Below are positions 29,944-47,579 of a stretch of DNA of 64,000 nt, piece after piece. Location: contig CBDBIB010000003.1 in NCBI GenBank assembly GCA_965205945.1, forward strand, positions 640,394 through 704,393. The letters are read 5' to 3'. The position numbers were made by a program, and so were the translations under genes. Under the pieces are notes generated by a model. The model made no database searches and was not told the DNA's origin. It saw only the letters and a program-made list of their open reading frames with translations. The stretch is from Bdellovibrionales bacterium. Lineage in GTDB: Bacteria > Bdellovibrionota > Bdellovibrionia > Bdellovibrionales > UBA1609. Positions within the stretch are counted from its first letter, which is position 1. The number at the start of each line of letters is the position of its first letter.

Positions 29944-30903
29944 ATGTTGACTATGAAAGACAATCATTTTTTTGAAGGTCCAGAAAAAAAACTAGAGCTT
30001 ATTTTTAAAGTTGAAGTGGGTGATCTACTTAAAAAACCAAATATTTTTTGGTATGGCCTTATGGATTTAGTAAAGGCAAAGATTTTATCTTCCATTGAAT
30101 CTAAAACCTGTAAAGCATTTTTGCTTTCTGAATCCAGTCTTTTTGTCTGGAAAAATAGAATTATTTTAATTACATGTGGGACAACAAGACTTATAGCAGC
30201 TGTAAAGTATTTGATTTCTATGTTTGGAAAAGATTTATTAGAAGAAGTTTTTTATGAAAGAAAGAATGAGTACCGGCCGAGTCTTCAAAAATCATCTGCA
30301 TTAGATGATATGGCCTGTTTAAAAGATATTTTAGGTGGAAGTGTTCACAGGTTTGGTCGAAAAGATGACCATCATGTATATATTTTTAATAGTTGTTTTA
30401 GTGAGAATAAAAATAATGCAAAAGTAAATACTCTAGAATTACTTATGTACGGCCTTCAAGGAGAATTTAATCTTTTTTTTATGAGTGATCCAGTGGTTCA
30501 AGAAAAAGTATTAAATTCGTTTAAAAAAATTCTGCCTGAATTTACTTTTGATCCATACTTTTTTAAACCAGAGGGGTTTTCTTTTAACGCCTTAAATGGT
30601 GATCAATATGCAACAATGCATGTTACTCCTCAAGGCTCAGAAAACTACGTAAGCTTTGAACTTGATCATGTGGATATTCAAAAAGCTAATAAAATAGTGC
30701 AAAATCTTGTGCACCTTTGTAGGCCTACTTCATATGATATTATTTTGTTTTCTGCAGAAGAGGAGGGTGTAGGCATGCGCTTTAAGCAATATGAGATAAA
30801 ACAGATTTCTAAATCAGAAACAGAGTCCGGCTACAATATTTTATATAGTCATTTTTATGATAAACAAAGTGTTTATATTAAACCGTTTGTAATTCAAACT
30901 TAA
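29944..30903 (+). CDS. speD: S-adenosylmethionine decarboxylase proenzyme, eukaryote-type (class 2, ~320 aa)
   Basis: FFEGPEKKLE, LLSE|SSLFV pyruvoyl cleavage site, ITCGTT, HVTPQ and YVSFE; precedes speE. Confidence 0.9.
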   Translation: MLTMKDNHFFEGPEKKLELIFKVEVGDLLKKPNIFWYGLMDLVKAKILSSIESKTCKAFLLSESSLFVWKNRIILITCGTTRLIAAVKYLISMFGKDLLEEVFYERKNEYRPSLQKSSALDDMACLKDILGGSVHRFGRKDDHHVYIFNSCFSENKNNAKVNTLELLMYGLQGEFNLFFMSDPVVQEKVLNSFKKILPEFTFDPYFFKPEGFSFNALNGDQYATMHVTPQGSENYVSFELDHVDIQKANKIVQNLVHLCRPTSYDIILFSAEEEGVGMRFKQYEIKQISKSETESGYNILYSHFYDKQSVYIKPFVIQT

Positions 30904-30913
30904 GAAAAAAGAG

Positions 30914-31780
30914 ATGATCAATATGAAAGAAGGCATTGATATTTGGGTAAGTGAAAATTTTAATGATGTTTATAAGATGAACTATAAAGTTAAAGAGACT
31001 TTATATTCAAAAGAGAGTGATTTTCAAAAAATTGATGTGGTTTTAACAGAGCATTTAGGAAGAGTGTTATTTAATGATGGGCTTTTAATGACATCTGAAA
31101 GAGATGAGTTTGTTTATCATGAAATGATCGCTCATGTCCCAATGTCTTCTCACCCCTATCCTGAAACAGTTTTGATTATTGGTGGTGGAGATGGTGGTAC
31201 GGCCAGAGAAATTTTAAAATATGATTATGTTAAAAAAGTTGTAATGGTTGAAATTGATTCTTGTGTAGTTGAAGCCTGTAAGAAGCATATTAAAGTTACT
31301 TCATGCGAATTAGATAATCCAAGATTAGAGCTTATCATTGATGATGGTTTAAAATATGTGAAAGAAACAACTAAGAAATTTGATATAATCTTAGTAGATT
31401 CTACAGATCCTATTGGGCCAGCGGCACCTTTATTTGATGTGGCTTTTTATAGTGATGTTAAAAATTGTCTTACAGAAAAGGGTATTGTTGTTTCACAATG
31501 TGAAAATCCATTTTTAGCAATACACATGCAAAAAAAACTTTTAGGGATTAAGGCTAAGCTTTTTGATAAAATTGCTGTTTATAATTATTCAAACATTACA
31601 TATCCGGGAGGTTTATGGTCTTTTTCTTTTGCTTCAAAAACTCAAGATCCCATTTTAGATGCAAGACCTCTTCCTGACAGCATTGTTAAAGATTTAAAGT
31701 ATTATAATCAACAGTTGCATAAAGCAGCGTTTGTCTTGCCACAGTTTCAAAAAAATGAAGTAAAAGAGTACTTAAAGTGA
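30914..31780 (+). CDS. speE: Spermidine synthase (aminopropyltransferase)
   Basis: DEFVYHEMIAH, VLIIGGGDGG, VEID, DSTDPIGP and YPGGLW. Confidence 0.95.
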   Translation: MINMKEGIDIWVSENFNDVYKMNYKVKETLYSKESDFQKIDVVLTEHLGRVLFNDGLLMTSERDEFVYHEMIAHVPMSSHPYPETVLIIGGGDGGTAREILKYDYVKKVVMVEIDSCVVEACKKHIKVTSCELDNPRLELIIDDGLKYVKETTKKFDIILVDSTDPIGPAAPLFDVAFYSDVKNCLTEKGIVVSQCENPFLAIHMQKKLLGIKAKLFDKIAVYNYSNITYPGGLWSFSFASKTQDPILDARPLPDSIVKDLKYYNQQLHKAAFVLPQFQKNEVKEYLK

Positions 31781-34934: not shown

Positions 34935-34982
34935 AATGGACCTTATTTTGACTCTTTTTTGTCTATGTGTCACATCTTAATG

Positions 34983-35960
34983 ATGTCAAATGTACACTTT
35001 TTACCTATTCATGGTCGCCAGATGCCTCGTTTTGGTGGAATTAAAACCTTTTTTAGACTTCCTCATATTAAGAAAACAGATGAGCTTTTTAAAAACTTAG
35101 ATATTGCAATTTTTGGGGTTCCTTTTGATGGGGGGGTCTCTTATAGGCCTGGGGCTAGGTTTGCCCCATCTAAAATTAGAGAGGTTTCTTCATTAGGTAG
35201 AGGTTATCATTTTTCAAGAGATCTTACGGTTTTTGATAGTTTAAATGTAGCAGACACAGGGGACTGCTTAGTGACTCCTATGTCTGTTGAAAAAACATAT
35301 GAACTTATTAAAGCGTATACGGGAGAGCTTTTAGAAAAAAATAAAAAATTTATTTCAGTGGGCGGTGACCATTCAACAACGCTTGCTCATCTTAGGGCAT
35401 TAAAGGAAAAAAATGGAAAAGCAGTATCATTGCTTCATTTTGATGCCCATTTAGATACCTATGCTTCAGCATGGGGTTGTGAATATCACCATGGCGCTTT
35501 TGTAAGGCATGCTGTAAATGAGGGCTTGATTGATTCAAAAACCTCTATTCAAATTGGTATTAGAGGGTCTTTAGCTGGAAAATCTGACTTAGATTTTAAT
35601 GTAGAGCATGGCCTTTCATATATTACCGTAGACAACATTCGTTTAAAAACTTTAAGTCAAGTTATGAGTAAGATACATGGGCATTTAAAACAAGAGTCTG
35701 TATTTTTAAGCTTTGATATTGATTGCCTTGATCCAAGTTGTGCGCCAGGAACTGGAACTCCTGTTCATGGAGGTCTTACAGTGTATGAGGTTCAAAAGAT
35801 TTTTCAGGAGCTTAGAATTAAAAATTTAGTTGGAGCAGATATTGTAGAGGTTTGTCCTCCTTACGACACAGCAGAGATTACAGCTTTGGCAGCGGTAGAT
35901 GTTATGTTTGAAATTTTGTGCTTGTATAAAATTGAGATGAACAATGGTCATAAAATTTAA
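34983..35960 (+). CDS. speB: Agmatinase / guanidinobutyrase-type ureohydrolase
   Basis: PRFGG..TFFRLP, GARFAP, GGDHS, DAHLD, SFDIDCLDP..APGTGTP and EVCP. Confidence 0.85.
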   Translation: MSNVHFLPIHGRQMPRFGGIKTFFRLPHIKKTDELFKNLDIAIFGVPFDGGVSYRPGARFAPSKIREVSSLGRGYHFSRDLTVFDSLNVADTGDCLVTPMSVEKTYELIKAYTGELLEKNKKFISVGGDHSTTLAHLRALKEKNGKAVSLLHFDAHLDTYASAWGCEYHHGAFVRHAVNEGLIDSKTSIQIGIRGSLAGKSDLDFNVEHGLSYITVDNIRLKTLSQVMSKIHGHLKQESVFLSFDIDCLDPSCAPGTGTPVHGGLTVYEVQKIFQELRIKNLVGADIVEVCPPYDTAEITALAAVDVMFEILCLYKIEMNNGHKI

Positions 35961-37395
35961 TAGAGTAAAAGAAAAGTTTCATCATGAAAATTGGCCGACC
36001 CCAGTTTTTTATGCTCCGGTATTTTTATACTATCTTTATAATTCACTAAAATTTAGAAAATTAAATTATTTTACCACTGCAAATCCAGGTCTAAAGGCAG
36101 GTGGAATGTGTGGTTTTTCAAAATTTGAATCATTTAAACTTCTTCCCTTAAAAGTTATCCCTACTACGATTTTATTAAATAATAAGCTTTATAGTGAGCA
36201 GCAGATTAAAGAGATGTTGAGTGAAAAAGGGTTAGAGTTTCCACTGGTGGTGAAGCCAGATCAAGGGGAGCGTGGGTTTTTGGTGTCTAAAGTAGATAAT
36301 CTAAGAGAGCTAGTAGAAACAATAAGTAATAAGACTTTAAAAATAAATTTTTTAATTCAAGAGTTTATTGACGAGCCTTTAGAGTTGGGTGTTTTTTTAA
36401 TAAGGCAAAATAAAGAGTGGAAGGTGTCTTCTATTACATCAAAGGATTTTTTAAGTGTTTTAGGTAATGGGGTAAAAACCATTAAACAGCTTATTGTAGA
36501 AGATAAGAGAGGTCGAAAATATTTTAATCCTTCTAAAATGAAGCTTGATCTTAAAAGAGTGCCTAAGCATAATGAAAGAGTTTTGCTTGAACCTATTGGT
36601 AATCATTGTAGAGGAACTAAGTTTGTAAATGAATGTGGTAGCATCACAAAAGAAACACATAAGGTTTTTAATAATTTTTTAAAAGATGTTAAGGGCATTA
36701 ATTATTGTAGATTGGATTTAAGGTCTTCATCTTGGCAAGCTCTTTATAAAGGTAGGTTTAAAATATTAGAAATTAATGGTGTTTCAGCAGAGCCTGGGCA
36801 TATTTATGATTCATCTGTATCTTTAATAAGAGCTTATAAGGATTTATTCTTTCATTGGAATGAAATGGCTTGTGTGGCTAAAGAGCAAGTCTTAAAAGGC
36901 GAAAAGGCAGAGAAGTTTTTTGATACCATGGGGTTTATAAGAACTCATATGAAACGAAAAAAAGAACTTCAAAGAGCTAAAGATTTAGTTATTGATGTTA
37001 TAGGCTGTAAAGGGTTAAATCTTTCTTTGGATCCGGAGGTGATCTTAAATAAATTTTCACAAGAAGAGTTGACGTTAAATCATAAATGTGTAGAAACCAC
37101 TTATGGTTATGAGAGAGCAGTGCTTTTTAAAAACAAAGATGTTGAGATTGTATTTTGCCATTGGCGTCCAGGAGATAAAAGTTCTGTACATCTACATCCA
37201 GGTGTAAACTGTTGGTTTAAATGCCTAAAAGGTGATATTGTTGAATTAAGATCAATGGGAAAAGAACAAAATTTTCTTACTAAAGGAGCTATAGGAAATA
37301 TTGACGACACAAAAGGCGCTCACCAAATGCTTAACATGTCTAATGAGTGCGCTTACTCAGTTCATATATATCAAACTAAAAAAGAGAATTCATGA
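35944..37395 (+). CDS. Fusion of an ATP-grasp ligase (Ddl-like uncharacterised family) and a C-terminal cysteine dioxygenase domain
   Basis: ATP-grasp: FPLVVKPDQGERG, LIQEFI, RLDLR, ILEING. CDO: Y389-E-R391, W..G..S.H416-L-H418, C423, H460, S472-V-H474-I-Y476. One continuous ORF. Confidence 0.85.
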   Translation: MVIKFNRVKEKFHHENWPTPVFYAPVFLYYLYNSLKFRKLNYFTTANPGLKAGGMCGFSKFESFKLLPLKVIPTTILLNNKLYSEQQIKEMLSEKGLEFPLVVKPDQGERGFLVSKVDNLRELVETISNKTLKINFLIQEFIDEPLELGVFLIRQNKEWKVSSITSKDFLSVLGNGVKTIKQLIVEDKRGRKYFNPSKMKLDLKRVPKHNERVLLEPIGNHCRGTKFVNECGSITKETHKVFNNFLKDVKGINYCRLDLRSSSWQALYKGRFKILEINGVSAEPGHIYDSSVSLIRAYKDLFFHWNEMACVAKEQVLKGEKAEKFFDTMGFIRTHMKRKKELQRAKDLVIDVIGCKGLNLSLDPEVILNKFSQEELTLNHKCVETTYGYERAVLFKNKDVEIVFCHWRPGDKSSVHLHPGVNCWFKCLKGDIVELRSMGKEQNFLTKGAIGNIDDTKGAHQMLNMSNECAYSVHIYQTKKENS

Positions 37396-38783
37396 AAGAT
37401 CTGCTTTTTCATATTCTGGAAAAAGCATTGCTTTTAAAAGAAAAACCTTTAGTAAGCTTAAAATCTCCCAAAAAACTTACGGAGTCTTTTGATCTAAGTT
37501 TAAAAGATGAAAAATATTTAGGCGATGCTAAAAATCTAATAGATTCTGTTTTTAAAAACTCTGTAAATACTCAAAACCCAAGATTCTTAAATCAGCTCTA
37601 CGGAGGGTCAACTCAAGAATCTTGGATAGGTGAATTTTTAGTTTCCATTTTAAATACTTCTATGGCTACATATGAAATAGCGCCGCTAGCAACTCTTATG
37701 GAAAAAGAATTGATTAAAAGTGTTAATAAAAAAGTGGGTTTTCCTAAAGTTGAAGGACTCATGGTTCCAGGTGGGAGTTATGCTAACATGCTCGGTCTTC
37801 AGTGTGCTAGATACACTCATAATAGAAAAATAAAAGAACAGGGGCTGTATGATTCTCCAAAATACAAGGTTTTTATTTCAAAGGAAGCTCATTATTCTTT
37901 TGAAAAAGCCTTAGGTCTTATGGGGCTAGGAACAAACTCTTTAGTTGAGGTGAAAATAAGCCTAGATAAGAAGATGCTTAGTTTAGATTTAGAGTTAAAA
38001 ATTAAGAAGTGTTTAGCTGAGGGTGGAGTGCCTCTTTGTGTTGTTTCAACTGCAGGAACAACTGTTTGGGGTTCATTTGATCCAATTAAAGAAATTGATG
38101 AAATTTGTAAGAAATTTCAAGTTTGGCACCATGTTGATGCTGCCTGGGGGGGGCTGGGTCTTTGGTCACATAGGGGAAAAGACCTTTTTAAAGGTCTTAA
38201 GCAAGTAGACTCTATTACTATTGATTTTCATAAACTTTTTGCATCTACGTTAACAAAGGGACTTTTTTTAACATCACATAAGAACGTGCTTAAAGGGGCT
38301 AATTCTGGTGGAGGAACAAAATATATCTTTCACAGTGCAGATGAAGAAGAAATTTCATATGATATAGGCACTTACGCAATTCAGTGTGGTCGAAAGGTAG
38401 ACTCTTTACCTGTATGGTTTCAGTGGAAAATGGGTGGAACTGATCAGTTTAAAAATAAAGCCTCCCACTTATATAAACTGGTAAACTGGACCACAGAATA
38501 TCTTTTAAAAGAAGCTAAAGAGTATAAATTGCAACTAAGTCCTGAATACATGAATATATGCTTTCAAATGCTTCCTGGAGACAACAAACTAGATGTAGGA
38601 GAGTTTAATAAAAGAGCGAGAGCTCTTTTATTAAAGCGTGGAAACTTTATGGTGAATTTTTCTAGCACAGAAGAAGATGGTGTTTTTTTTAGATTAGTAC
38701 TAAGTCACTGGGGACTTACACAAAATATTCTTGAAGAGTTTTTTATTGAGTTAAAAAATATTAAAGAAGAGCTTAAATTCTAG
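37392..38783 (+). CDS. Group II PLP-dependent decarboxylase of animal GAD/CSAD type (putative cysteine sulfinate decarboxylase)
   Basis: FLNQLYGG...LNTSMATYEIAP, PGGSYAN, AHYS, TAGTTVWGSFD, HVDAAWGG, FHK (PLP lysine) and IQCGRK. Confidence 0.88.
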   Translation: MKDLLFHILEKALLLKEKPLVSLKSPKKLTESFDLSLKDEKYLGDAKNLIDSVFKNSVNTQNPRFLNQLYGGSTQESWIGEFLVSILNTSMATYEIAPLATLMEKELIKSVNKKVGFPKVEGLMVPGGSYANMLGLQCARYTHNRKIKEQGLYDSPKYKVFISKEAHYSFEKALGLMGLGTNSLVEVKISLDKKMLSLDLELKIKKCLAEGGVPLCVVSTAGTTVWGSFDPIKEIDEICKKFQVWHHVDAAWGGLGLWSHRGKDLFKGLKQVDSITIDFHKLFASTLTKGLFLTSHKNVLKGANSGGGTKYIFHSADEEEISYDIGTYAIQCGRKVDSLPVWFQWKMGGTDQFKNKASHLYKLVNWTTEYLLKEAKEYKLQLSPEYMNICFQMLPGDNKLDVGEFNKRARALLLKRGNFMVNFSSTEEDGVFFRLVLSHWGLTQNILEEFFIELKNIKEELKF

Positions 38784-38804: not shown

Positions 38805-39785
38805 TTGGAATTTTTTCCTGAATTAGATCAAATTGAAAAAGTAACAAAAAGGTTAAAACGTCAAGGAGTACCCTTTGAACGTAACACATTGGCTCAAATA
38901 GAGCATAAAGGTAAAAAATATCCAATACAGGGTTTTGTTATAGGATCAAAAAATCCAGAGGCCCCAACACTTGGTTTATATGGTAGTGTTCATGGTTTAG
39001 AGAAAATTGGAACACATGTTATTTTAAATTACTTAAACTCCCTTGCATTTAGATACTCTTTAAATTTATACATAAGAAAAAAATTTGAATCTTTTAGAAT
39101 TGTATCTATACCTATGGTGAACCCATATGGGGTAAAGCACAATAAAAGAGGCAATATGAATGGGGTTGATCTTATGAGAAACTCCCCAGTAAAAGCAATA
39201 GGCAAAACCTTACCATTTCTTTCAGGTCACCGAATATCTCCTAGAATTTGGTGGTACAGAGGTGAAGAGAATAAAATGGAGCAGGAGTCGTTGGCCCTCA
39301 TCAATTTTGTAAAAGAACAGATGTTTTCTTCAGAATTTTCTATGGCTCTAGATCTACATTCTGGTTTTGGATTAAGGGACAGGTTGTGGTATCCATACTC
39401 AAAAGCAGTAGGGATATTCCCCTTAGAGCATGAAGCTAGAAATCTAAAAAGAACAATGAAACTTATTAACCCCTTTCATATTTATAAGATTGAACCTCAA
39501 TCAGACTCTTATTTAATTCATGGTGATTTGTGGGATCATATGTTTGATTTACATTTTTTAGATTCTAAATACAAAGGGTTTTTTTTACCGTGGACTTTGG
39601 AGATGGGAAGTTGGAATTGGATTAAGAAAAATCCATTTCAAATTTTTTCACAAAAAGGCTGGTTTTATCCAATGAAACTACATAGGGTGAATCGAGTGAT
39701 GAGAAGGCATTGGTGGCTTTTAGACTTTTATACAAACTTTATTGCTAATGGTGGGATAGATTTAAGCTCTAGTAATTTTAAATAG
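38805..39785 (+). CDS. M14 zinc carboxypeptidase/deacylase-like protein (DUF2817-like)
   Basis: VHGLE (HxxE), NPYG...RGNMNGVDLMRN, DLHSG and TLEMG; GAGGAG SD before a TTG start. Confidence 0.85.
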   Translation: MEFFPELDQIEKVTKRLKRQGVPFERNTLAQIEHKGKKYPIQGFVIGSKNPEAPTLGLYGSVHGLEKIGTHVILNYLNSLAFRYSLNLYIRKKFESFRIVSIPMVNPYGVKHNKRGNMNGVDLMRNSPVKAIGKTLPFLSGHRISPRIWWYRGEENKMEQESLALINFVKEQMFSSEFSMALDLHSGFGLRDRLWYPYSKAVGIFPLEHEARNLKRTMKLINPFHIYKIEPQSDSYLIHGDLWDHMFDLHFLDSKYKGFFLPWTLEMGSWNWIKKNPFQIFSQKGWFYPMKLHRVNRVMRRHWWLLDFYTNFIANGGIDLSSSNFK

Positions 39786-39939
39786 CAGAACAATTTTTTA
39801 ATAGAGTTTTTTTAAAAGTAATGAGAATAAGAATTTGTCTTAATAGATTATTTCATAATGTAGGTAAAAATTATTAAGAGAGTAAGAAATAAGCCTAAAT
39901 AGGCTTTTGTTGAACAAAACCTTGGAGGTTAAGATTAAT

Positions 39940-40773
39940 ATGGAAAAAGTAAAACTTTTACAAGGTGTGACAGCATATGAAGACTTAAATAAAGAGTTTT
40001 TAAAGGTAGTTGTTTTTCTCCATGGTGGAACTATTCCAAGCTGGTGTTATGATCATGTGTTTAAAAAACTTCAGGGCAAAAACTTTAGACTTATAAGGTA
40101 TGATATGTATGGCAGAGGGGAGTCAGATAGTCCAAATCTTAAATATAATAGAATTACATATTTACAACAGTTAGAAAACTTTTTAGAAAATTTAAAAATT
40201 AATAAGGTGCATGCTATTGTTGGATGTTCTTTTGGGGCTTCTTTAGGAACTTTGTTTAGCTTAAAAAATCCCCGCGCTGTTAAGAAAATTATTTATATTT
40301 CTCCAGCTATAAATTGGGTTAATAATATTAAATTGGCAAGAATATTTTTTATTCCTATTCTGGGTAGAATTTTGTTTTATACAGTAGGTAAAAAACTCAT
40401 TAGAAAAAGAGCATTAGGTTTTATGAAGTTTTTAAAAGATGAGGAATTTTTAGTTTATCAAACACTAATAGAAAAACAATTTCATATAAATAATCATGGT
40501 TTTTGGGATTCTCTTTATAAGCAACTTACAACAGATGCGTTAAAGAGTTATCTTGCTGAGTACAAAACTTTAGGGGGTTTGAACCAACATGATGTGAGCC
40601 TTATTTGGGGTATTGGTGATAAGGAAGTAAGTGCGGATGATATAAAAAATATTAAGCAGTATTTTCAAAATATTAATATAAAAAATATAAAGGGAGCTGG
40701 TCATGGTCTTATGGCAGAATTTCCTGAACTGGTGGCAGCGTTTGTTGTAGAGGCTTTAAAGGAGGCGCCTTAA
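39940..40773 (+). CDS. Alpha/beta hydrolase
   Basis: FLHG, YDMYGRGES, GCSFG nucleophile elbow, GAGH; the ORF-track alternative start is 39907. Confidence 0.88.
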   Translation: MEKVKLLQGVTAYEDLNKEFLKVVVFLHGGTIPSWCYDHVFKKLQGKNFRLIRYDMYGRGESDSPNLKYNRITYLQQLENFLENLKINKVHAIVGCSFGASLGTLFSLKNPRAVKKIIYISPAINWVNNIKLARIFFIPILGRILFYTVGKKLIRKRALGFMKFLKDEEFLVYQTLIEKQFHINNHGFWDSLYKQLTTDALKSYLAEYKTLGGLNQHDVSLIWGIGDKEVSADDIKNIKQYFQNINIKNIKGAGHGLMAEFPELVAAFVVEALKEAP

Positions 40774-46705: not shown

Positions 46706-47579
46706 GGGTGTGTCCTCATAAGAGAGTCCTGAAATCAATACATTTGCCCAGTTGAATGACTTAAAATGATGGGAAAAACTCGACTTATCGAGGTATTTTG
46801 CATGGTAAGAAAAGTTTTAACAGATTCTCTATGGGAGCAGCTTGAAGTGATTTTGGTTTCACATGGCTGCAGAAGATCAAAAAATAACCGTAATGTTATG
46901 GAGGCTATCCTGTGGAAGCTTCGAACAGGTGGTCCTTGGAGGGGATGTACCTGAAAAGTTTTGTCCTTGGAAAACAGCTTACAATCGGTTTAATCGATGG
47001 GCTGCAAAGGGCTTGTGGGATAATTTTTTTTTGCTTTACAAGAAGAAGTTGATACAGAGTGGGTGTCCATCGACGGAACTTACGTACGCGCTCATCAGCA
47101 TGCTAGTGGAGCTAGGCGTGGAGAGTACCGTGCAATTGGAAGGTCTGCAGGTGGAGCCACAACAAAAATACACATGGCCTGTGATGCCCATGGAAATCCG
47201 ATTTGTTTTGAAGTCACTGGGGGTCAAGTGCACGACAGTAAAGCTGCACCCAGCTTGATTGAACAGCTAGAGGCAGAAAGTTTACTGGCAGATAAAGGCT
47301 ATGACTCTGAACAGATCAGGCAACTAGCTCGAGATAAAAATATGAAGCCAATGATACCTCAAAGAAGAAACAGTAAGAAATTAAATCCAGAACTGGATAA
47401 AGATACTTACAAGGCCAGACACCAAGTGGAGAATGTCTTTGTAAGGCTTAAACACTTTAGAAGTGTGGCGATTCGCTTTGAAAAACTCGCTAGAAACTTT
47501 AGATCGATAATATCTTTAGCGTGCACTTTTGTGTGGCTAAAACTTAACTATGCTGGTCCAGGGTTATGAGGACACGCCC
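46706..47579 (+). mobile_element. IS5-family (IS427 group) insertion sequence, ~874 bp
   Basis: 16-bp TIRs GGGTGTGTCCTCATAA / TTATGAGGACACGCCC (1 mismatch), flanked by TA on both sides; orfA (LTD..W...RTG.PWRD.P..F.PW.T.Y.RF.RW) and orfB (IDGT.VRAHQHA, ADKGYDS, R..VEN.F..LK.FR.VA.RFEK). Confidence 0.95.
46802..47569 (+). pseudogene. IS5 transposase with an extra frameshift in orfA besides the normal orfA/orfB junction
   Basis: An extra G in the GGGG run at 46941-46944 gives WRGCT* instead of WRDVP; a T9 run at 47024-47032 joins orfA to orfB in the -1 frame. Confidence 0.8.

Follow-up and report, generated by a model that had tools for sequence, protein, structure and literature searches.

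A 64,000-nucleotide stretch of the genome of a Bdellovibrionales bacterium (GenBank assembly GCA_965205945.1, contig CBDBIB010000003.1, positions 640,394 to 704,393 of the forward strand), hereafter the window, carries a gene in which an ATP-grasp ligase is fused in frame to a cysteine dioxygenase (CDO) domain. The window has a G+C content of 33%, and the genome comprises 1.87 Mb in 5 contigs. That the fusion is real and functional we regard as practically certain. As to its role, we propose, with slightly less than even confidence, that it is a bifunctional enzyme in a three-activity pathway in which hypotaurine or taurine is made and then amide-linked to a carboxylate, perhaps that of an arginine- or ornithine-based aminolipid head group.

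The fusion gene occupies positions 35944..37395 on the plus strand, starts with ATG and encodes 483 amino acids (aa) without an internal stop. An earlier note, made from the letters of the DNA alone, had read it as a single open reading frame (ORF) joining the two domains, and this was borne out: the frame is uninterrupted and both domains were matched. Among 5.8 billion proteins searched there were 20 more full-length fused proteins of 470-499 aa that are 42-83% identical to that of the window, and the ATP-grasp domains of the fused proteins form a clade with a support of 100% in the Shimodaira-Hasegawa-like approximate likelihood ratio test (SH-aLRT). Searching 1.84 billion representatives gave 2524 relatives at E<=1e-3, of which 602 reach E<=1e-30, with only three full-length fused representatives (P0014, P0017 and P0019) and two fragments among them, indicating that the fusion is a small clade inside a large family. 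Of 401 genomes from the phylum, only those of the window's genus (its own and both others sampled) gave full-length fused matches. Further occurrences lie in one Bdellovibrionales metagenome-assembled genome (MAG), which holds the closest public locus, and on one metagenome contig.

Several lines of evidence argue against an assembly or frameshift artefact that merged two separate genes. The only point in favour of such an artefact is that the stretch was found in a single sequencing run, probably that of the source sample itself, and thus has no independent read support. No RNA dataset containing the stretch was found. The Logan contigs of the run tile positions 35700-37700 with zero differing letters, indels or joints, and record 7 (36945-37700) crosses the domain junction. 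Thus the stop or frameshift for which the earlier note had wanted positions ~36980-37100 examined does not appear in these contigs, which, as the run is probably the source sample, amount to a second assembly and not to an independent sample. The 20 other full-length fused proteins come from separate assemblies, however, and include those of the two other genomes of the genus, the MAG and the metagenome contig. We dropped the artefact reading on the strength of this recurrence and of the second assembly, and consider its probability negligible. Moreover, the invariance of CDO catalytic residues and ATP-grasp motifs across the 21 fused proteins indicates that the fusion is real and under selection.

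The C-terminal part of the protein carries a complete set of CDO catalytic residues. Its cupin core (residues 385-480; 37096..37383, plus strand) matches Pfam CDO_I (PF05995) over residues 388-477 with 29.8 bits, against a gathering cut-off of 23. HMMER comparison with human and rat CDO1 aligned Y389/R391 with Y58/R60, H416/H418/H460 with H86/H88/H140, C423 with C93 and S472/H474/Y476 with S153/H155/Y157, so that each catalytic residue named in the earlier note was recovered, together with the spacing of +7 from the first His to the Cys that the domain shares with CDO1. Across the fused proteins R391, H416, H418, C423, H460, H474 and Y476 are invariant (21/21), Y389 is present in at least 90%, and position 472 is Ser or Thr. 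The segment ahead of the core (residues 346-384; 36979..37095, plus strand) is a helical/beta linker corresponding to the N-terminal part of a CDO domain: in the homologue L033 the CDO_I match begins at residue 348 and covers profile positions 9-157, a structural model places helices at 325-346, 364-370 and 373-379 and strands at 349-359, and the profile-to-PDB alignment starts at query position 363-364, equivalent to CDO1 residue 34-35. That model, made with AlphaFold2 from the 21 fused sequences, has a mean predicted local distance difference test score (pLDDT) of 84.3. Foldseek matched its C-terminal part to rat, human and B. subtilis CDO and its N-terminal part to the cyanophycin synthetase G domain (7wae), GshF (3ln6) and Ddl, in each case at a probability of 1.0, and thus the modelling check suggested in the earlier note found both folds.

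Arg, rather than Gln, at the R60 position marks true CDOs according to a published account (PMC8050391), and the C-terminal domain appears from its residues to be an Arg-type cysteine dioxygenase capable of forming the Cys-Tyr crosslink. The domain had also been called mammalian-type. In support of this, Cys93 is present and the fused-clade profile scores about 10 bits closer to CDO1 (48.7 vs 38.6). Nonetheless the label was overstated, because other bacterial CDOs with Cys at position 93 are already on record (PMC13689094) and because the single-sequence scores are about equal (20.5 bits for mammalian CDO1 and 19.4 bits for B. subtilis CDO). With CDO1 (PDB 2b5h, 6bgf) and B. subtilis CDO (PDB 3eqe/4qm8) the domain shares the cupin fold, the 3-His iron site, Tyr58/Arg60 and the Ser-His-Tyr triad, with the crosslink Cys at +7 from the first His; it differs from solved CDOs in being shorter (~135 aa), in sitting behind an ATP-grasp domain and in being only 22-25% identical to them. 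A word-indexed search found no close standalone relatives of the domain, a result that reflects the limits of the index and is not proof of absence.

The N-terminal domain (residues 1-345; 35944..36978, plus strand) is supported by a Pfam RimK match over residues 60-145 (26.4 bits against a cut-off of 21), by Foldseek and by invariant columns, and includes a conserved N-terminal HHENWP / aromatic-rich helix segment. Every ATP-grasp signature motif quoted in the earlier note could be located in the ORF, namely W17-P18...F22-Y23.P25, A46-N-P-G..G53-G54.C56..S59-K60, G219-N-H-C-R-G224 and E276-I-N-G....E283-P.H286-I-Y-D289, and the alignment of the 21 fused proteins shows no variation at the majority of their positions. 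Also invariant are K104, E147, R256, D258, E276 and N278, which we take to occupy the expected positions of the canonical ATP-binding Lys and Mg-binding Glu/Asn. The domain shares the ATP-grasp fold with cyanophycin synthetase, GshF, Ddl, RimK and LysX and matches the RimK, LysX and CphA hidden Markov models (HMMs) weakly, but it is just 12-19% identical to solved ATP-grasp structures, and its conserved N-terminal segment distinguishes it from known ATP-grasp amide ligases. We rejected identity with Ddl (11.5-16.7 bits for the NCBIfam Ddl-type models against cut-offs of 243-520), with RimK (30 bits against 143), and with LysX and cyanophycin synthetase, whose NCBIfam scores were likewise far under the cut-offs. 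As all of these scores fall so far short, the ligase is an ATP-grasp enzyme outside any named family. The statement in the earlier note that the family is often labelled D-Ala-D-Ala ligase did not stand, since its members are mostly called 'hypothetical protein' and the name D-alanine--D-alanine ligase was attached to one listed relative only.

The genes that flank the fusion are tightly packed with it. Upstream lies a gene for an arginase-family ureohydrolase of the agmatinase / guanidino-acid hydrolase type (34959..35960, plus strand; Pfam Arginase E 9.9e-87), the stop of which overlaps the fusion-gene start by 17 nucleotides, and the true start of which may be a later ATG. The ureohydrolase scored 204.2 bits against the NCBIfam agmatinase model TIGR01230 (cut-off 174.3) and 299.6 against NF002564 (cut-off 302); among solved structures it comes nearest to guanidinobutyrase (3nio, 230 bits), proclavaminate amidinohydrolase (1gq6, 222) and guanidinopropionase (3nip, 215), with E. 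coli agmatinase 7lol (192 bits) ranking after those three. Downstream lies a group II pyridoxal-phosphate (PLP) decarboxylase gene of the CSAD/GAD/GADL1 type (37392..38783, plus strand; Pfam Pyridoxal_deC E 1.9e-64), whose ATG overlaps the fusion stop codon (ATGA). The top solved relative of this decarboxylase is human CSAD (2jis, E 3e-81), followed by GAD67, GAD65, mouse CSAD and GADL1; no second PF00282 gene was found in the genome. The order ureohydrolase, fusion, decarboxylase was seen in 5/5 fused-type loci (the window, L001, L022, L023 and L033). In three of the five (the window, L001 and L033) there is also a gene for an M14-family zinc peptidase-like protein (DUF2817-like), located in the window at 38805..39785 on the plus strand (Pfam Peptidase_M14 E 2.7e-15).

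Other gene layouts in the phylum link the ATP-grasp family to the same activities, in support of the Rosetta-stone connection between an orphan ligase family and cysteine-oxidation products that had been drawn from the fusion. Separate neighbouring ATP-grasp, CDO and decarboxylase genes were found at four loci of family f20, which had been picked for having both ATP-grasp and CDO matches; in one of the f20 genomes (G345) only one TAA stands between the ATP-grasp and CDO genes, which share a frame. Downstream, 3/4 of these loci have genes for a PlsC-type acyltransferase and a VTT/DedA protein, and an OlsB-like N-acyltransferase gene is present in 2/4, in one of which an arginase-type gene overlaps it. 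The L025 proteins match the NCBIfam OlsB and OlsA models with scores under the cut-offs.

The third layout came to light in 20 loci selected solely for a long-form (VTT-)ATP-grasp match. At 11 of them, spanning six families (f2, f8, f14, f16, f20 and f24), the gene for a DedA(VTT)-ATP-grasp protein lies beside an operon with YHS, DoxX and a fusion of CDO to a decarboxylase. The survey also found OlsB-like genes at three loci (L125, L129 and L134) and ureohydrolase, PlsC-like and M14 genes at two each; all of these counts are lower bounds, because the custom HMMs were built from few sequences. CDO-decarboxylase fusions of 538-548 aa occur in L121, L125, L126, L127, L128, L129, L130, L131, L132, L134, L139 and L142. 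In these proteins a compact cupin of ~105 aa with all CDO residues, the Cys included, stands ahead of a CSAD-like PLP decarboxylase, and 11/11 aligned fusions retain Arg60, the three His, Cys93 at +7 and T-x-H-x-Y.

One of two further loci picked for nearby CDO matches, L121, brings most of these partners together. On one strand DUF1223, VTT-ATP-grasp, OlsB-like, arginase-family and PlsC-like genes abut or overlap, and on the divergent strand lie DoxX, a 548-aa CDO-decarboxylase fusion (L121:4619-6265, minus strand), an unknown gene and an alpha/beta hydrolase. Genetic linkage to OlsB/OlsA-like acyltransferases was seen at L025, L026, L121, L125, L129 and L134. At L129, where the order is VTT-ATP-grasp, ureohydrolase, OlsB-like, M14, the M14 protein is 42% identical to that of the window. 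The ureohydrolases are non-orthologous: that of the window is agmatinase/guanidinobutyrase-like, whereas L025, L121 and L129 have arginase-like enzymes (29% identity between window and L129), and judged by these likenesses two different subfamilies are apparently recruited. Over the whole phylum, the link of CDO and decarboxylase to the ATP-grasp family extends to three clades of the ATP-grasp tree, at least eight families and three gene layouts. Among the proteins of 847-2415 aa that were searched there was no tri-functional fusion of ATP-grasp, CDO and decarboxylase; the same search yielded ~880-aa proteins (P0265-P0268) composed of alpha/beta hydrolase, VTT/DedA and ATP-grasp.

The CDO-decarboxylase fusions imply that cysteine sulfinate is handed to the decarboxylase, yielding hypotaurine, and the ATP-grasp-CDO fusion and the recurring neighbourhoods suggest that the ligase works in the same pathway. 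ATP-grasp enzymes couple a carboxylate to an amine. As hypotaurine has an amine and lacks a carboxylate, the simplest role for the ligase would be to amide-link hypotaurine or taurine to a carboxylate; the OlsB-like, PlsC-like, DedA and ureohydrolase partners suggest that this acceptor may be an arginine/ornithine aminolipid. In the pathway that we envisage, the CDO domain would oxidise free L-cysteine to cysteine sulfinate, as its catalytic residue set suggests, and the translationally coupled decarboxylase would turn this into hypotaurine, as its homology and the CDO-decarboxylase fusions suggest. Hypotaurine might then be oxidised on to taurine. The ATP-grasp domain would activate a carboxylate as an acyl phosphate and then link this, as an amide, to the amine of hypotaurine or taurine, a step to which the fusion and the neighbourhood point. 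The last step is the weakest. Here the acceptor carboxylate would belong to a compound derived from arginine or ornithine, the presumably co-transcribed ureohydrolase would hydrolyse a guanidino group to leave an amine, and the pathway would end in the head group of an acyloxyacyl aminolipid similar to tauro-ornithine lipid.

Our confidence differs between the parts of this proposal. It is probable, from the genes and their arrangement, that CDO and decarboxylase together make hypotaurine, and the cysteine-oxidation product that matters is probably hypotaurine from the adjacent decarboxylase rather than cysteine sulfinate. We lean, by a little, towards hypotaurine or taurine as the amine that the ATP-grasp domain takes, and hold an arginine/ornithine aminolipid acceptor to be possible and rather doubtful. 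A bolder version, which we think unlikely, is that the ATP-grasp family would be the long-sought class of ATP-dependent ligases by which ornithine-type aminolipids receive taurine or hypotaurine on their carboxyl group, and that Bdellovibrionota would build (hypo)tauro-ornithine lipids de novo. Cysteine would then enter through CDO and the CSAD-like decarboxylase and arginine through OlsB/OlsA-like acylation and unmasking of ornithine by the ureohydrolase, oxidation of hypotaurine to taurine would fall to the ever-present DoxX/YHS pair at the membrane, and the window gene would be a variant with the ligase fused to the first enzyme of head-group synthesis.

A number of observations weigh against the proposed pathway. 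The flanks of the five fused-type loci contain no acyltransferase, and the single OlsB-like gene and three PlsC-family genes of the window genome are on other contigs; OlsB-like genes were present in only 3/20 of the loci chosen without regard to CDO. The ureohydrolase may simply be the housekeeping SpeB, given that it passes the TIGR01230 equivalog cut-off, that the genome carries a true arginine decarboxylase (SpeA) and that genes for an S-adenosylmethionine (SAM) decarboxylase and spermidine synthase lie nearby. The decarboxylase deviates from the selectivity motif of characterised CSADs, F/W-X19-S-X-Y according to a preprint (10.64898/2026.08.27.747329). The motif reads Y-X19-S-X-A in the fused-type loci (4/4) and F-X19-T-X-A in f20 (4/4), so that the first two positions are compatible and the third is Ala in 8/8 aligned sequences, and its substrate could therefore differ from cysteine sulfinate. 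Finally, no CDO or decarboxylase was found with the custom HMMs near 79 standalone ATP-grasp genes from a metagenome sample, on contigs many of which are short, suggesting that the family overall need not use hypotaurine.

Some of these points favour alternatives to the aminolipid route. Hypotaurine could still be ligated as an amide while the product is soluble, such as arginyl-/ornithyl- or glutamyl/aspartyl-hypotaurine; it would act as an osmolyte, as an antioxidant or in protection against metal stress and be turned over by the M14 enzyme. The five fused-type loci without lipid genes fit such a product, as do the LysE-type exporter at 36/80 metagenome loci, the redox- and metal-related neighbours there (YHS, DoxX, YceI and occasionally AhpC), and the soluble amino-acid or peptide substrates of the nearest structural relatives, the cyanophycin synthetase G domain and GshF. 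We nevertheless judge it unlikely, as most paralogues in the phylum are DedA/VTT-fused and repeatedly abut OlsB-like and PlsC-like acyltransferases, and as the window operon contains no exporter gene. A different possibility is that the ATP-grasp domain acts on cysteine or cysteine sulfinate itself, through the amine or the activated carboxylate, so that the product or substrate of CDO is channelled and the decarboxylase supplies the other partner or serves a side branch; an X-cysteine-sulfinate dipeptide or a cysteine-sulfinyl-polyamine would be possible products. Fusions often join consecutive steps, and here a single polypeptide holds both CDO and ATP-grasp. Cysteine sulfinate is an analogue of aspartate, the residue added by the cyanophycin synthetase G domain, to which the ligase is closest in structure; the agmatinase-like enzyme and nearby polyamine genes could provide putrescine as the amine partner. 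However, CDO is fused to the decarboxylase in 11/20 of the unbiased loci, which argues that the sulfinate goes to the decarboxylase, and the decarboxylase is present in 5/5 fused-type loci. We consider this possibility improbable.

A further idea is that the domains are independent, with CDO and decarboxylase removing excess cysteine or making free taurine or hypotaurine, the ATP-grasp domain doing something unrelated, and the fusion serving co-regulation. It is in keeping with the description of bacterial CDOs as cysteine-detoxifying enzymes (PMC13689094), with the known bacterial CDO/CSAD route to taurine (Agnello 2013, as cited by others) and with a family that far exceeds its CDO-linked part (602 representatives at E<=1e-30 as opposed to three full-length fused ones). 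Yet a link between CDO/decarboxylase and ATP-grasp that recurs over three clades, at least eight families and three layouts is hard to explain without a shared pathway, and we rate independence as very improbable.

The proposed pathway resembles two known systems in part. Agnello et al. reportedly described in 2013 a taurine pathway made up of CDO and CSAD in Synechococcus sp. PCC 7335. As described in papers that cite that work, the cyanobacterial pathway has, like the window, a CDO gene with a CSAD-type group II PLP decarboxylase, and none of the DoxX, YHS, ureohydrolase, M14 and acyltransferase partners seen here is mentioned for it. The window system also differs from it in having Ala, not Tyr, at the third selectivity position of its decarboxylase and in extending the pathway with a CDO-fused ATP-grasp ligase. 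The second system is the tauro-ornithine lipid (cerilipin) of Gluconobacter cerinus, in which transfer of taurine to the ornithine-lipid carboxyl group is ATP-dependent and the enzyme and gene are unknown according to a 2026 review (PMC12971839). ATP-driven formation of such an amide is the chemistry of the ATP-grasp class, and the operons of relatives of the window gene include OlsB-like and OlsA/PlsC-like acyltransferases and arginase-type enzymes. In contrast to cerilipin biosynthesis, the window locus has no acyltransferases and would yield hypotaurine as its first amine.

In a literature search outside which most subscription journals lay, we found no description of an ATP-grasp-CDO fusion or of a CDO-decarboxylase fusion with a DedA-ATP-grasp partner, none of a taurine or hypotaurine lipid in the phylum, and none of ATP-grasp fusions to DedA/VTT, alpha/beta hydrolase or CDO. 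Bacterial CDO/CSAD pairs and Cys93-type bacterial CDOs are already known; the fusion and the three-activity system appear to be undescribed so far. Through the fusion, a function can for the first time be suggested for a large uncharacterised ATP-grasp family (602 or more clusters at 50% identity, E<=1e-30), and the three mutually reinforcing layouts define a candidate pathway that would add ATP-driven conjugation to a little-known bacterial route from cysteine to hypotaurine and taurine. Were the acceptor an ornithine lipid, there would be a directly testable candidate gene for the taurine transfer with ATP that was described in G. cerinus in the 1970s. In addition, judging by the conserved residues, crosslink-capable CDOs of the Cys93 type would seem to be the rule across a whole bacterial system and not an oddity of a few pathogens.

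To place the fused clade within the wider family, we built a quick IQ-TREE phylogeny (LG+G4, SH-aLRT support only) of 76 ATP-grasp domains, comprising the 21 fused proteins, 5 from f20, 11 unfused, 11 long forms and 28 standalone metagenome proteins drawn at random from the 320-400 aa members of the 79. The long forms (SH-aLRT 100), the CDO-adjacent f20 proteins (97) and the standalone proteins (84) each formed a group, and proteins of ~328 aa were sister to the fused clade (99). The branching order of the f20, standalone and fused-plus-sister groups is unresolved, and the link to CDO may have arisen once or several times. Sequences of the family are mostly Bacteroidota-like, Pseudomonadota-like and from Bdellovibrionota.

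The metagenome sample held 80 ATP-grasp loci, one fused and 79 standalone. The most frequent neighbours at these loci were a 170-aa protein (41), a LysE-type exporter (36) and a TANGO2-like protein (35), followed by YceI (23), a YHS (seleno)protein (22) and DoxX (21); many contigs are short and these numbers are lower bounds. At L034-L112 a standalone ATP-grasp protein of ~340 aa sits in a recurrent module of TANGO2-like, LysE exporter, DoxX, YHS, YceI and 170-aa and 245-aa proteins.

The window genome has a second paralogue of the ligase, a VTT(DedA)-ATP-grasp fusion of 534 aa (G000 contig 1, L113:4543-10078). After it come a YHS (seleno)protein-family gene, a 649-aa fusion of Rieske and thiamine-pyrophosphate enzyme domains and a ferric-reductase-TM + Rieske protein, and no CDO or decarboxylase gene was found at this locus. 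In another genome (G053) a VTT-ATP-grasp gene beside a YHS '(seleno)protein'-family gene contains one in-frame TGA (L143:8001-9571) and could be a pseudogene or have a recoded codon. A further kind of CDO fusion occurs in family f6, where an N-terminal CDO_I domain is joined to a C-terminal SAM methyltransferase in proteins of 660-669 aa (L122:4716-6725, plus strand; L124:3488-5470, minus strand); the fusion adjoins an Asp/Glu racemase-family gene and lies close to an FAD-linked oxidase.

Several other features were noted around the window operon. Beyond the M14 gene lies an alpha/beta hydrolase gene (39907..40773, plus strand; Pfam Abhydrolase_6 E 6.8e-17) whose membership of the system is uncertain. 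It was rejected as a conserved operon member, the ORFs at the same position in L001 and L033 being unrelated. Alpha/beta hydrolases do stand beside the system in L025, L121 and L123, and the window enzyme resembles that of L025 at the level of the fold only. Just inside the decarboxylase start, positions 37402-37427 form a terminator-like hairpin (a 9-bp stem, then a T-run), which could be due to chance or be a regulatory element at the translationally coupled junction. At 29944-31780, 4 kb upstream of the operon, a gene for a SAM decarboxylase of the eukaryotic type (Pfam PF01536, 319 aa) stands directly before that for spermidine synthase. Finally, at 46863-47569 two overlapping ORFs, a DUF4096 part and a DDE part, make up an IS4/IS5-family transposase, perhaps reflecting a programmed frameshift or a decayed copy.

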